Positions 1,761 through 8,849 of a DNA stretch of 64,000 nucleotides are shown here, piece after piece. The DNA comes from Camelus ferus. Lineage: Eukaryota. Every line of letters starts with the position of its first letter. Positions within the stretch are counted from its first letter, which is position 1. Made by a program: the position numbers and the translations under genes. The stretch spans positions 39,186,001 to 39,250,000 of the forward strand of contig NC_045696.1 in the NCBI RefSeq assembly GCF_009834535.1, read 5' to 3'. Below the pieces are notes generated by a model. That model saw only the letters and a list, made by a program, of their open reading frames with translations. It did not search any database and had not been told where the DNA came from.

Positions 1761-2573
1761 CTTCCTCTTGATGACTTCCTACCCATAGTGAACTGGGAGG
1801 ACATCAAGCATAGTTTCAATGGTGTATTGCTATATTGGGCATGGAACGTCTTTATTTTTCTCAAATAATCTCTTTACTTAAGAAAACAAATTTCCTCTTC
1901 CAGATAAATTAGAATTTACTAGTCAAACTATCTCCCAATGATTTTGTTTGTGATTGCATGTACTTTATAAAATGTATATATTAATTTGGGAAATTTACCT
2001 CCTTGACTAGATCAAGTCTTTTTGTTTAGATAAAATTACAGATTTCATATACTAAACAAATTTTATACTTCTCAGTAGTCTTTCATTTTTGCCAAATACA
2101 CATAGGTCAGGCGTATTTCTTGCTAAGTTTAATCAAAAATATAGAATTAGATAAATATGATTATGTGAATATGTGTATACATAATTATAGGTTTTTATGA
2201 AAATGACATAGCCAGGGAGATAACCCAAAAGTTTTTCAAACTAGTAACATAGGAAAATATGAATGATATGTTATTAAATTAAAAATCATTTGTGAAACAT
2301 TATGTGTAGCAATACTCTGATATTATTTATATATGTATAAATGTTTATTTAAATTAAGTGTATATAAATGTATATATAATTTCTGTAAATAAGTATACAG
2401 AGATATCATTCCATGGGTTAAAGGTAGAAGAAAAAAACCCAAAAAGTTAACATTTGGGTAGTAAGCAGTGATTAGTAAGATTACAGCAATTTGTTTTCTT
2501 TGTGCTTTCTACATTCTCAATTTTCTTCCTCAATTAAAATGTTACTTTTTATTTTTAAAAGAAAGAAACAAGC

Positions 2574-2957
2574 TGTGAAGGAAAAGCCGGGCTGGGCTAA
2601 CTCATATATCTAAGTTCATAAGTGTTAGTTTGGTAATTCCCTGCTCATGTTTTTTTTTTTTTTTTTTTTTTTTTTTCCTAGCCAGCTGGATTTTCAGAGA
2701 GACATATCTGGCCTTGAAATGTTGGTTTGCTGCCTCCCTGCCTCTACTTTCGTGATAATGATGCTGCTAAAGCTATTCCATGCCTATTGGCCAAATACCC
2801 CAAGCTTGTAATTAACCCTATAAAACCTCATCCGCACATCTTGGAGGTGCTCGAGCTTTGGAGCAGAAGCCCCTCTGAGACTGCCGGCGTAATAAATCTG
2901 AGTACTCCAACCCTCCGAGTGGTGCTTGTTTCTTGGCTGGCTTGTTGTTTCCATACA
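2574..2957 (+). repeat. 5' LTR
   Basis: Begins TGTGAAGG, ends CCATACA; TATAAAA near 2819 and AATAAA near 2891; direct repeat of 8466-8838. Confidence 0.95.
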
Positions 2958-2961
2958 TTTC

Positions 2962-2979
2962 TGGAGGCCCCAGCGAGAT
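2962..2979 (+). promoter_or_regulatory. Primer-binding site, tRNA-Thr(UGU)
   Basis: TGGAGGCCCCAGCGAGAT is complementary to the recalled tRNA-Thr 3' end ATCTCGCTGGGGCCTCCA and lies 4 nt after the 5' LTR. Confidence 0.85.
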
Positions 2980-4142: not shown

Positions 4143-5545
4143 ATGGGAGGCTCGAAGTTGAAACCCACCACCCTAGGCTGCATGATGAAAAATTCCAGAA
4201 AGGGGTTCTCAGGAGACTATGGAGTTTAAGTAACCCCTGGCAGGTTCCACACTTTGTGTGAGCTTGAATGGCCAACCTTTGGAGTTGGGTGGCCTTCAAG
4301 AGGAACTCTGGACCTAGCAACAGTGCGAGCAGTCTATCGAATAATTACTGAAACCCCAGGCCACCCAGATCAATTCCCATACATTGACTCCTGGCTGAAT
4401 ATTGCCCAGACTCTACCCCCATGGATTCGGTTCTACTCAAATGGACCTGGACAATGCAAGGTATTAGCAGCTCAGCTGGTCCAGGCCAAAAAGACAGAGA
4501 AAAGCCTATTTTCCAGGGAGACACAGAGGACGAGATGTGCCTGCCCCCTCCATATGCCCCTGGGGCACCGACACCTCCAGTCCCATTGGAGACACCGCCA
4601 CCCTCTGTGTCACCACCTCCCCAACCTAAGGACCTAGAGGCAGAGCCCAGGCCCCAGCCTAGGAAGGAGGTAGGAAGGAGGCTCTGCTCAGCACAAGCTG
4701 GGAGACCAGCACCACCGGCCCTTCAAATGCCTCTGCGGGAGACACAAGTGCCACAGCACGTTGGGGAGGATGGGACTGCTCAGCCTGGACATCCTGTACT
4801 CTACTACCAACTCTTTAGCACTACAGACCTTCTCAATTGGCGCCATCATACTCCTTCCTATTCCGAAAAACCGCAGGCATTTCAATCACTTTATGGTCTA
4901 AACAGAATTAAGACAAAGAGCTTCCACAATAATAGCAGATGAAGAGCCACTGGTAAACTGATCAGGATTTTTGGCCTGCCCTCCAAAGAAAGGGAGCAGA
5001 AAGTGTCAGAGCGGGCTGCGGATGACATCAGGGGTGCCGGGCTGAGCAGTGACAGCGGGTGGAGCAGCGGCCACGGCCACCTGGTGGCGACAGCAGCATC
5101 AGCAGCAGCCTCTGCAGCCCCGGCACCGTCTCCACCTCAGCGGCCACCACTGCTGCTGCCATGGCAACTGTCGGGGAGCGCCGGCCCCTGCCCAGCCCCG
5201 AAGCGTTGCTGGGATAGTCATGGGGCTCTGTCGCGAAGACATGCCAATATTGGTCTGGGTCCAGCCCATGATGATTTCTACTTGGTGGTGTGTAATGACT
5301 GTAATCAGGTTGTCAAACCGCAGGCTCTCATTGACCTTGTAAAGTCTATCTTTCATTCTCACCGGCCCACCTGGGGAGATGTTCACCAGCTGCTTGTGAC
5401 TCTTCAAAATGGAGGAAAAGAGACACATTCTCACTGAAGCATGAAAATGGCTGCAAGGCCGAGCCCAGAGGGACACACTGGATGTTGAGGGGTGGGCCAT
5501 GACACAGGCCCCTGACACCAGACCAGATTACGACTTTATCTCAGA
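4143..5545 (+). pseudogene. gag: ERV gag (matrix, PPPY late domain, capsid N-terminus); stops, frameshifts, host insertion, 3' deleted
   Basis: MGGSKLKPTTLGCM...CELEWPTFGVGWP (matrix); LPPPYAP; FSTTDLLNWRHHTPSYSEKPQA / [16 protein letters not shown] (capsid, split by the insertion). Confidence 0.93.
4879..5325 (+). pseudogene. ATXN7: Captured spliced, circularly permuted ATXN7 (ataxin-7) 5' exons
   Basis: [47 protein letters not shown] and [22 protein letters not shown] match the ataxin-7 N-terminus. The residues that normally follow (FQSHY, here FQSLY) lie at the START of the insert (4879-4895). Confidence 0.95.
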
Positions 5546-7653
5546 GTCCTGACTCAGAATGTGGGGCCATGGCAGCACCCTGTGGCCTATTTGTCTAAAA
5601 GACTGGACCCTGTGGCATCAGGATGACCACCCTGTCTGCAGACCCTGGCTGCCACAGCCCTCCTGGTCAACGAAGCAGACAAACTCACCCTGGAACAGAC
5701 TTTAAATGTAAAAGTGCCCCACTCTGTTGTGGACCTGATGAACTGCCCAGGTTACAAATGGATAAATAACACAAGAATGACCCATTGCCAGGGGTTTCTA
5801 TGTAAAAATCCAAGAGTCTGTCTAGAGACTGTGCGAACCTTAAACCCAGCCACATATTTACCTGAAGGGGAAGGGTAGCCTAACCACAACTGTAAAAAAT
5901 CATCAAAGAAGAGTACGCGAGTAGGCCTGATCTAACTGACAAGCCCCTGCAAAACGCAGACCTAGAACTCTTCACAGCTGGCAGCAGTTGCGTGCAGGAT
6001 GGACAATGGCGAGCAGGTTACTCTGTAACAACAACATGAGAGATTATTAATAAAGGCAGAATCCCTTCCCCCAGGATGGTCTGCTCAGTGAGCAGAGACG
6101 TGGGCACTGGTCCAGGCACTAAGGGAAGGGAAAGGAAAACAAGTCAATATATACACTGATTCCAAATGTGCATTTGCAACCTTGCATGTACATGGAGCCA
6201 TCTATAAGCAGAGAGGACTTTTGACTGCTGGGGGAAAAAAATAAAAAACAAAGAAGAAATTTTACAGTTACTGGAGGCAGTATGGGATCCAAAGGAAGTG
6301 GCCGTTATTCACTGTAAGGGACACCAAAACTGGAAATAACCCTGTGAACCAGGGTAATAGTCTGGCTGATCAAAAGGCAAGAGAGGCAGCTGCCCTGGAA
6401 CACCCAGTAATGAAAATTATGGCAGCGCCAGAGCTACCCACTACCCTAGAATATTGCCACGATGAAAACAAGTGGGCACAGGCCGAACAAGGGAAGAAAG
6501 GAAAGGATGGATGGTGGATCATGATGGATGGAAGGGTTTTCATCCCAGAACGACTAGCTTATAGCATAGTCCGACAACAACACGAAGCCACACACATGGG
6601 AAAAACGGCTTTGTAGGCCCTGCTGAAGCGGTATTTCCTGATTTCTCGTCTCCCTACTCTGTGTGCATCAGTCTCCCAACACTGCTTGCTCTGTGCACAA
6701 AACAATCCAAAACAAGGGCCCACTGGGCCAATGGGAGTACAACGATGTGGATTGGCTCCCCTCAAAGATTTAGAAGTGGACTTTACTGAACTTGGGCCCA
6801 GTAAGGGATATAAGTACCTGCTGGTTTTTGTCTGCACCTTCACAGGGTGGGTGGAAGCCTACCTCACCAGGACAGAGAAAGCAAGGGAGGTGACAAAGGC
6901 CCTCCTCAGGGATGTCATCCCTCGGCCTGGAATGCCTACCTACATCAGGTCCGACAATGGACCCACCTTCGTGGTAGAGATTGTGCAGCAAGTGGCAAAG
7001 ACAGTGAGCACCCATTGGAACCTACACACAGCATACCGGCCTCAAAGCTCAGGGAAGTTAGAACGAATGAACAGAACTCTAAAAATAAATGATAGCTAAA
7101 ATCAGCCAAGAAACCCAGCTCCCCTGGGTGGACATTTTACCCCTGGCTCTGTTGTGAATTAGATACACCCCAAGACTTAATATTGGGTACTCTCCCTTTG
7201 AAATCCTCTGTGGGAAATCCCACCCTGGAGATAGGAAATTTAGGGTTCCACCAACAACTGTTGGGACTAGGACAAGGACTATGGGAAGTTTGGGGTTGGG
7301 TAATAGAGAGAACCCCCATTTCATTAGAAGTCCAAGTGCATCCCCATAAACCAGGTGACCGAGTATGGGTAAAGGATTGGAAAAAGGAACCTCTGAAACC
7401 AACATGGAAGGGACCATATTTAGTGGTATTAACTACCCCTACAGCTGTTATTAAAGTTGCAAGAATCATCCCTTGGATCCACCACTCCAGGGTTAAGAGA
7501 GCAACTTCACCTCGGACACAGGGTCCCTGGAGAATTGAGAGCGTCCCAGGAGGCCCACTCAAGATCAAGATCAAGAGAGACCAGAAAAAGATTGACGAGC
7601 CCTGCTCTAGCCACACCCAGAAGCTGACTAGTCAATGCACAGCCGCAGCTTGA
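5546..7653 (+). pseudogene. pol: ERV pol 3' half (RT connection, RNase H, integrase); protease and RT core absent
   Basis: [97 protein letters not shown]; several stops and frameshifts. Confidence 0.93.
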
Positions 7654-7849: not shown

Positions 7850-8440
7850 ACAATCATAAGGCTGATATTACTGACACTAATGCCCTCACTCCCCTTGCTA
7901 GTGGGGCTCAAAATGACAACAGGGATGGGCACAGGACTCGGTGGCATAGCCTCATCCTCTTACTACTATTATCAGCTTACAGGTGAGTTCAGCCAAGATC
8001 TCCAATGAACAGCAGAAACCCTGGGAGCTCTGCAAAATCAGATTGACTCTGGCCGAGGTGGTCTTACAAAACAGGAGGGGTCTGGACCTACTCATGGCCA
8101 AAGAGAGGGGACTATGCCTCTTCCTAAACGAAGAGTGCTGTTTTTATGCCAATGAATCAGGAATTGTCAGAGGGATGGTTCAAGAGTTACAAGACCGAGT
8201 GGAAAAGAGGAAACATATTTTAGACAAGAGCCCATGGACAGGCCCCTGGGGCTGGACCTCCTGGCTGGCACTGTTCATAAGACCCTTACTCCTGATTTTT
8301 GCAGTTCTGCTATTTGGGCCCTGTGTCCTAAACTTCCTGACCCACTTTGTCAGTGAGCGGGTAGAGGCTATAAAACACCAGATGTTAGCCTCCAATTATG
8401 AGCCCCTGCAGCAGGTGAAAAATGCTTACTCCAACAAGGG
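7850..8440 (+). pseudogene. env: ERV env remnant: TM subunit, with SU deleted
   Basis: Fusion-peptide-like PLLVGLKMTTGMGTGLGGIASS; immunosuppressive domain LQNRRGLDLL; CLFLNEECCF cysteine motif; membrane anchor LLIFAVLLFGPCVLN. Confidence 0.92.
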
Positions 8441-8453
8441 TTGTAAAAGCCTC

Positions 8454-8465
8454 AAGAGGGGGGAA
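8454..8465 (+). promoter_or_regulatory. Polypurine tract
   Basis: All-purine run (AAGAG...GGAA) abutting the 3' LTR. Confidence 0.9.
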
Positions 8466-8838
8466 TGTGAAGGAAAAGCCAGGCTGGGCTAACTCATAAA
8501 TGTAAATTAATAAGTGTCGGTTTGCTGATTCCCTGCTCATGCTTTTTTTTTTTTTTCCTAACCAGCTGGATTTTCAGAGAGACGTATCTGGTCTTGAAAT
8601 GTTGGTTTGCTGCTCTCTGCCTCTATTTTTGTGATAATGATGCTGCTAAAGCTATTCTATGCCTATAGGCCAAATACCCCAAACTTATAATTAACCCTAT
8701 AAAACCTCATGCACACGTCTTTGAGGTGTTCAGAGCTTTGGAGCAGAAGCCGCCCTGAGCCCGCCGGCATAATAAATCTGAGTACTCCAACCCTCCGAGT
8801 GGTGCTTGTTTCTTGGCTGGCCTGTCGTTTCTGTAACA
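8466..8838 (+). repeat. 3' LTR
   Basis: TGTGAAGG...CTGTAACA, roughly 90% identical to the 5' LTR by eye, followed by the AAGC TSD. Confidence 0.95.
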
Positions 8839-8849
8839 AAGCTATAAAA

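Follow-up and report, generated by a model that had tools for sequence, protein, structure and literature searches.

How does a retroviral gag gene come to contain the exons of a host gene in circularly permuted order, enclosed between two copies of one short motif? The question is raised by an endogenous retrovirus (ERV) of Camelus ferus that lies in G000:C1:39186001-39250000, a stretch of 64,000 nucleotides (nt) which as a whole is called the window here, and whose relatives we searched for across the 2.09-Gb assembly. Its gag gene is interrupted by an insert made of exons 2-5 of ATXN7, the gene for ataxin-7. This insert is probably a DNA copy of one lap of a back-spliced circular RNA (circRNA) of those exons, captured by reverse transcriptase (RT) into gag of a gammaretrovirus-like element. 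At least 38 loci bear the insert, 22 of them with the full lap and 16 with a short form.

One lap of ATXN7 exons between two motif copies

The insert maps to four exons of a single gene on the minus strand of C17, all with AG/../GT boundaries. The exons are numbered by analogy with PMC13313202, in the accessible part of which the exon carrying the CAG tract is exon 3:

C17:14564913-14564816, minus strand: host exon 2, 98 nt, non-coding
C17:14551505-14551151, minus strand: host exon 3, 355 nt, with the start codon and the CAG tract
C17:14550923-14550855, minus strand: host exon 4, 69 nt
C17:14512772-14512668, minus strand: host exon 5, 105 nt, containing the 11-mer AAACCGCAGGC

The same exons can be followed through the insert, from the first to the second copy of the 11-mer:

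4868..4878, plus strand: left motif copy AAACCGCAGGC, exact match; position 3 is A (ATXN7 type) in 19/22 full-lap copies
4868..4895, plus strand: ATXN7 exon-5 tail, from the motif to the last exon base (host C17:14512695-14512668; host exon end ...CATTATG/gtaagt)
4895..4896, plus strand: back-splice junction of exon-5 donor and exon-2 acceptor, exact to the base (host exon 2 start ...tttatag/GTCTGAAC)
4896..4992, plus strand: ATXN7 non-coding exon 2, ~88% identity to C17:14564913-14564816
4993..5219, plus strand: ATXN7 exon 3 with start codon and CAG tract, shortened (host C17:14551505 onwards); forward splice from exon 2 to exon 3 exact
5216..5219, plus strand: AGTC microhomology at a 94-nt deletion across the exon-3/exon-4 junction, common to 38/38 insert-bearing copies
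5220..5238, plus strand: residual 19 nt of ATXN7 exon 4 (host C17:14550877-14550855, 100% over 23 nt); exact splice GCGAAG/ACATGCC to exon 5
5239..5325, plus strand: ATXN7 exon-5 head through the motif, 94.4% to host C17:14512774-14512685
5315..5325, plus strand: right motif copy AAACCGCAGGC, exact match; position 3 is A in 15/22 and G in 7/22 full-lap copies

The order of parts is thus exon-5 tail, exon 2, exon 3, exon 4 and exon-5 head, a circular permutation, and in the host gene exon 2 sits 52 kb upstream of exon 5. Exons 2-5 account for the insert fully, with no further host sequence between the motifs. To judge by its junctions, the insert evidently derives from spliced exons arranged in a circle (or in tandem), and its length corresponds to one circumference. 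The circular origin proposed in a preliminary description of this DNA is borne out by the exact exon-5 donor to exon-2 acceptor junction at 4895/4896, by the forward splices elsewhere and by the single circumference. A present-day host circle of exons 2-5 would measure 627 nt; the lap in the window measures 447 nt because of the 94-nt deletion and because the GC-rich and CAG parts of the inserted exon 3 are shorter than in today's host. The window insert is 87.7% identical to the host lap over 455 columns, the host being its best match among all rows, and at the junction of exon 5 and exon 2 the host reads TCGCATTATG/GTCTGAACAG versus TCAC... in the ERV copies. Of the 34 residues encoded by host exon 5, 33 are identical in Ataxin-7 (PDB 7ktr_N, residues 133-166; E 6.5e-19). 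Translation of host exon 3 (C17:14551505-14551151; L009-L016) from its ATG departs from the frame expected for ataxin-7 in the GC-rich part that precedes the CAG tract; the cause may be an indel in the assembly of a GC-rich repeat or a genuine lineage difference.

Both exact copies of AAACCGCAGGC, at 4868-4878 and 5315-5325 on the plus strand and 447 nt apart, stand where they had been reported, and one further site, at 4351-4361, matches with a single mismatch; at no more than one mismatch, 0.28 matches are expected, and three were reached in 0 of 100 shuffles. The gag frame enters the insert as ...LLNWRHHTPSYSEKPQA (...SYSEKPQA) and continues as AFQSLYGLNRIKTKSFHNNSR to a stop 21 codons into the insert, and the exit from the insert is read in a second frame. 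KPQA is in frame at both borders. That it is encoded in the same frame in gag and in ataxin-7, as had been claimed, agrees with the frame translations and with host exon 5 on C17, which carries the exact 11-mer. Neither border has a poly(A) tract; the insert ends in the motif, and gag restarts at once.

Relatives that lack the insert reveal the state of gag before it. The left and the right gag flank, used as queries, each yielded 69 candidates, of which 40 were scored, and the two sets of matches overlap by exactly 11 nt at 10 loci. We compared 311 nt per locus at 20 loci outside the list of insert-bearing ones, and all 20 are empty, with gag uninterrupted and a single copy of the motif, as the preliminary description had predicted. 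One empty member (G000:C1:39360252-39360562) lies ~170 kb from the window copy on the same contig. The empty gag aligns without gaps to the capsid N-terminal domain of murine leukaemia virus (MLV; 1u7k, SEKPQAMIDLVES versus SEDPGKLTALIES, E 5e-17); therefore, the motif belongs to gag itself, where helix 1 begins, and elements without the insert represent the ancestral state. Empty elements read ...TCTGAA-motif-TATGATTGACC, and identical flanks border the insert in the window, so zero gag bases were lost, in accord with the earlier claim of neither gag loss nor poly(A). The earlier denial that the repeat is an L1 target-site duplication (TSD) likewise stands, since the repeat is single in the empty elements and in ATXN7, a poly(A) is lacking and the exons are not colinear.

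The motif of the empty elements is not quite that of ATXN7. The gag-native form is AAGCCGCAGGC, exact in 12/20 empty loci, and CpG-decay variants make up most of the others; position 3 is G in 18/20, and the exact ATXN7 11-mer occurs in 0/20. The homology between gag and ATXN7 is therefore 10/11, with 8 bases contiguous, so that the idea of a shared 11-mer holds for host ATXN7 and fails as an exact match for gag. The provirus without its insert and the 627-nt circle share 52 8-mers (shuffle mean 55.9) and 25 11-mers at no more than one mismatch. The similarity of the gag and ATXN7 motifs is itself at chance level, and what goes beyond chance is the presence of one motif at both ends of the insert. 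A role for the motif as a special recombination signal was rejected on account of that chance-level similarity. Two empty loci (L044, G000:C6:94190527-94190837, and L050, C14:64089511-64089821) have the ATXN7-like A at motif position 3 (AAACTGCAGGC and AAATCTCAGGC), which could be a simple G>A change or a revertant produced by a jump between motif copies.

Spread of the chimeric element

The genome search with the insert returned 41 matches, of which 40 candidates were scored: the window itself, 20 other full-length loci, one locus (L024) in two pieces that count as two matches, 16 loci spanning only the last ~235 nt of the query, and two host exons. The back-splice junction is kept in 22/22 full-lap copies, and since the 94-nt AGTC deletion is present in 38/38, there was one capture, followed by spread. 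TSDs were checked at the 17 loci with both long terminal repeats (LTRs), namely the window, L024 and 15 short forms. Perfect 4-bp TSDs flank 14 of the 17, in 13 distinct sequences, ATAC occurring in both L023 and L033 with different flanks; at L024, 3/4 bases match. Copies at other loci with their own 4-bp TSDs, which the preliminary description had anticipated, place the capture before the spread, and together with the empty elements they place it in an ancestor element and not at the window locus. The last two of the 17, L018 (G000:C3:55269236-55279235) and L031 (C12:189941-199940), have the same sequence before the 5' LTR (...caagt(c/t)taGGAA) without a matching 4-bp TSD, which may reflect a common repeat in the 5' flank or a rearrangement. 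Copies are concentrated around 17.4-17.7 Mb on C9 and 62.6-63.1 Mb on C14.

Divergence between paired LTRs dates these insertions. The two LTRs of the window provirus stand at a distance of 0.093 and those of L024 at 0.052, with values of 0.004-0.057 among the short forms; at a mammalian rate of ~2.2e-9 per site per year, the range from 0.093 to 0.004 corresponds to roughly 20 to 1 million years. Identity to the host lap lies at 79.5-90.3% among the insert-bearing copies. By these comparisons the window provirus is an old, host-like member of the family that inherited its insert, and the chimera, with its gag frame closed, reached at least 38 loci by spreading as a non-autonomous element. The provirus in the window has the following parts:

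2570..2573, no strand: 5' TSD AAGC, abutting the 5' LTR start and repeated directly past the 3' LTR
2574..2957, plus strand: 5' LTR, TGTG...ACA, 384 nt, aligning with 8466-8838
2962..2979, plus strand: primer-binding-site-like TGGAGGCCCCAGCGAGAT, starting 4 nt past the 5' LTR and conserved in other copies
4230..4637, plus strand: gag matrix region (Pfam Gag_MA, E 1.7e-16)
4388..4867, plus strand: gag frame by translation, with a PPPY motif at 4544-4558 and the start of capsid, leading into the 11-mer
5326..5437, plus strand: resumption of the gag capsid N-terminal domain (Gag_p30, E 8.6e-5)
5627..5878, plus strand: RT connection region (PDB search, MLV RT residues 388-467 of 4mh8, E 8.5e-17)
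6617..7653, plus strand: integrase core and C-terminal domain in two frames (Pfam rve, E 1.6e-16; MLVIN_C, E 1.6e-17)
7950..8492, plus strand: env transmembrane part (TLV_coat, E 1.4e-37, profile positions 452-559 of 560)
8466..8838, plus strand: 3' LTR, by alignment to the 5' LTR
8839..8842, no strand: 3' TSD AAGC, the same 4 bp as 2570..2573

The Pfam set of Gag_MA, Gag_p30, rve, MLVIN_C and TLV_coat identifies a gammaretrovirus-like provirus. MLV capsid and MLV RT are the best PDB matches of its gag and pol parts, and the MLV-type gag, pol and env domains, the TG...CA LTR ends and the 4-bp TSD are those of a class I (gammaretrovirus-like) ERV; a Pfam search of 5627-5878 gave no match. Between the capsid N-terminal domain and the RT connection region the window lacks the capsid C-part, nucleocapsid, protease and the N-terminal (polymerase) part of RT, and the element is therefore non-autonomous: its gag is closed by the insert, and large parts of gag and pol are absent. 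The two LTRs differ by 32 mismatches (Jukes-Cantor for the distance given above). Within U3, the 5' LTR (2649-2676) has a T-run that exceeds that of the 3' LTR (8541-8556) by ~12 nt, and the first ~90 nt of the window LTR are unlike the LTRs of most other copies.

The short form descends from the full lap. At its 16 loci, gag reads ...GAAAAGCCGC and passes straight into exon 3 (...CCAGCAACAGCAG...), without the counterpart of window 4875-5090, the break lying at an (A)GCCGC repeat common to the left motif and exon 3. In a host-rooted tree, the basal polytomy consists of full-lap copies only, and a single clade of 26 takes in all 16 short forms and 10 full-lap copies (SH-like approximate likelihood ratio test, SH-aLRT, 96). 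As the short forms are nested in full-lap diversity, the short form is derived, and the tree and the repeat show it as a probable product of a second microhomology deletion. It occurs on two sequence backgrounds, which suggests recombination or repeated deletion. Its motif has G at position 3, versus A in 19/22 full-lap copies, a poor fit to simple deletion that can be explained by a crossover in the (A)GCCGC repeat importing the exon-3 G or by recombination with an empty element.

One short form (L030) has complete gag domains and then only the integrase C-terminus and the env transmembrane part, a pol-deleted element of ~5.2 kb. The gag frame is closed in 14/16 short forms and reads through only in L028 and L031, each by way of its own indels; restoration of an open gag frame was accordingly rejected as the reason for the success of the short form. 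With the frame closed in the window as well, nothing points to a selected fusion protein, and the family lacks the mark of an acutely transforming type of transduction, a host coding sequence left open in fusion with a viral frame. Another short form, L026 (G000:C14:46576443-46586442), has three LTR copies (LTR-internal-LTR-env part-LTR) and looks like a tandem or recombined structure. At L029 (G000:C37:28794172-28804171), also a short form, the captured CAG tract has grown to roughly 35 or more units; a disease-type CAG repeat stays unstable inside an ERV.

Routes into gag

RT copy-choice at microhomology is an established route of retroviral recombination and transduction, and we infer that an RT template switch onto a packaged circRNA is the best mechanism for the capture. 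The circle would have been packaged into a particle, and during minus-strand synthesis RT on gag would have jumped to it inside the motif, at the start of capsid helix 1, where gag AAGCCGCAGGC and ATXN7 AAACCGCAGGC offered a short chance homology. RT would then have rounded the circle once, through exon 5 head, exons 4, 3 and 2, the back-splice and the exon 5 tail, and on meeting the motif again would have returned to gag, leaving one lap between two motif copies with neither gag loss nor poly(A). The 94-nt slip at AGTC would have happened during or soon after capture. The preliminary description had RT switching in and out at the motif; the single lap, the empty elements and the spread support this, while its choice of RT over the DNA level stays an inferred one. 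CircRNAs have been reported inside HIV-1 and MLV particles (bioRxiv 10.64898/2026.01.21.700838, accessible part), and according to the accessible part of PMC13313202, human ATXN7 yields several circRNAs containing exon 3.

The alternatives differ in the template or in the time of entry. In a DNA-level, Campbell-type event, which we consider unlikely, a circular cDNA or double-stranded DNA of the circRNA would have recombined at the motif with integrated or unintegrated viral DNA of the ancestor. This predicts the same anatomy of one lap, doubled motif and no loss, and one reciprocal crossover is expected to give the G/A (three basal copies) and A/G (seven) that we see at left and right motif position 3. 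Most basal copies have A on both sides, which is impossible by one reciprocal crossover, since that gives G/A or A/G, and needs two independent crossovers. A/A may thus fit two independent switches better, a weak argument because it concerns a single transition-prone site whose ancestral state is uncertain. The Campbell-type event would require homologous recombination over 8-10 bp, a process of low efficiency in animal cells, along with a separate source of circular cDNA; RT copy-choice needs neither. Alternatively, RT could have copied a linear exon-repetition RNA, produced by trans-splicing or a transient tandem duplication, entering at the downstream motif and leaving at the upstream one. 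The product would be identical, and the sequence is equally compatible with a circle and with these exons repeated in tandem. Back-spliced circles are far commoner than exon-repetition RNAs, the host locus has each exon in single copy within the 80 kb searched, and the genome search with the insert found no rearranged copy of ATXN7 outside the ERVs. In human, circles of ATXN7 have been documented, with other exon sets (accessible parts of PMC13313202 and PMC10786880). Together these make a linear template quite improbable.

Taken alone, the short form looks like a linear transduction of the usual kind, with a microhomology at each end, and it retains the gag-type G at left position 3, as would be expected had it arisen first from linear ATXN7 mRNA and been extended later to the full lap by circle recombination. 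We regard two such captures as very improbable, given that the short forms are nested in full-lap diversity, that the copies at the base of the tree, which are also the oldest and the closest to the host, carry the full lap (LTR distance 0.093 in the window, against 0.004-0.057 in short forms), and that the 94-nt AGTC deletion is common to both forms; a second capture of the same gene would also be required. An insertion after integration at the window locus, either an L1-type retrocopy or repair filler with the repeat as TSD or chance, has next to nothing left in its favour beyond the look of the 11-bp direct repeat around the insert. It is refuted by the same insert at the same gag position at 37 other loci with proviral TSDs of their own, by the occurrence of the repeat once in empty elements and once in ATXN7, and by the lack of poly(A).

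Beside the G/A and A/G copies, several further points weigh against capture of a packaged circle followed by spread. In-particle copy-choice and recombination of DNA forms look alike in the sequence. The exon 5-to-exon 2 circle of host ATXN7 is a putative one, and a comparison of the 15 kb of intron upstream of exon 2 with the 12.6 kb downstream of exon 5 gave zero inverted repeats at E<=1e-10; the lack of such repeats in today's introns is not evidence against a circle. TSDs were examined at just two full-lap loci, the window and L024 (the latter at 3/4). Two counted loci, L008 and L058, are 11 kb apart (C9:17428934-17429369, minus strand, and C9:17440309-17440729, plus strand); in opposite orientation and sister rows in the tree (SH-aLRT 96), they may go back to a local duplication in inverted orientation and not to two separate integrations. 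Finally, GCTCT- follows the right motif in 12/22 full-lap copies, versus GCTATG in 20/20 empty elements, so that either the progenitor subfamily lies outside the sample or the change postdates the capture.

With RT capture of a circle as the preferred reading, one genome preserves the host exons with their splice sites, the single-motif empty element, the one-lap product and many independent integrations. The question of mechanism becomes a testable model of circle packaging, RT entry and exit at one short homology and spread by way of the retrovirus, and it predicts for other genomes ERV-internal inserts that are circular permutations of spliced exons. A host insert that disrupts gag was no bar to long ERV amplification, as the span of LTR distances attests. 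More tentatively, the family could be an anatomically complete natural record of a retrovirus copying packaged circRNA, with ERV capture and amplification the general route to multi-copy circRNA pseudogenes (e.g. circRFWD2) and with the capsid-truncating insert an aid to non-autonomous spread; we hold this broader proposal to be possible rather than probable. The counts behind its last part are 38 chimeras versus at least 20 empty elements among 69 candidate loci, with about 11 of the 69 outside the 38 + 20 count.

Comparison with known systems

Neither a circRNA lap carried by a retrovirus nor ATXN7 sequence within an ERV came up in our literature search, which did not extend to repeat-library annotations. 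The insert has none of the three marks of an L1 processed pseudogene, namely poly(A), colinear exons and a long TSD of target DNA. In classical retroviral transduction, the capture of viral oncogenes (v-onc), copy-choice at little or no homology takes up colinear exons from a read-through chimeric linear RNA. The camel family resembles it in having the sequence of a spliced host RNA in a retroviral genome, junctions at short homologies and a defective, helper-dependent virus; it differs in its closed-circle template, in the use of one motif for both junctions, in holding exactly one lap and in expressing no working fusion.

Two further systems share single features with the family. ETn, mobilised by MusD in mouse, is a non-autonomous ERV family moved in trans, and here too internally deleted LTR elements outnumber or rival their coding relatives and insertion was long-lasting (LTR distances 0.093 to 0.004), though the defect of the camel family includes a host-derived capsid insert. 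In Campbell-type integration, as modelled for phage lambda, a circle joins a linear molecule through a site common to both, and this site is afterwards present on either side of it in duplicate. The likeness is one of topology only: an integrase and attachment-site system has no counterpart here, the shared site is a chance 10/11 match, and the event most likely took place at RNA-to-DNA copying.

The closest comparison is with circRNA-derived pseudogenes, exemplified by the 33 copies of mouse circRFWD2, in which exon 6 is joined to exon 2, poly(A) is scarce and the flanks are rich in LTRs (PMC4897178). The mechanism by which circRNAs are retrotransposed was called mysterious in that study (Dong et al. 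2016). The marks used there are found in the camel insert as well: a non-colinear junction at exact exon boundaries, exons of the circle only and no poly(A), with many copies per capture; the enrichment of LTR sequences was in the flanks of the mouse copies. Unlike those copies as described, which PMC4897178 does not place inside a retroviral gene, the camel lap lies within gag between two motif copies. The camel family also goes beyond that description in having empty relatives, proviral LTRs with 4-bp TSDs and a deletion derivative, ordered in time.

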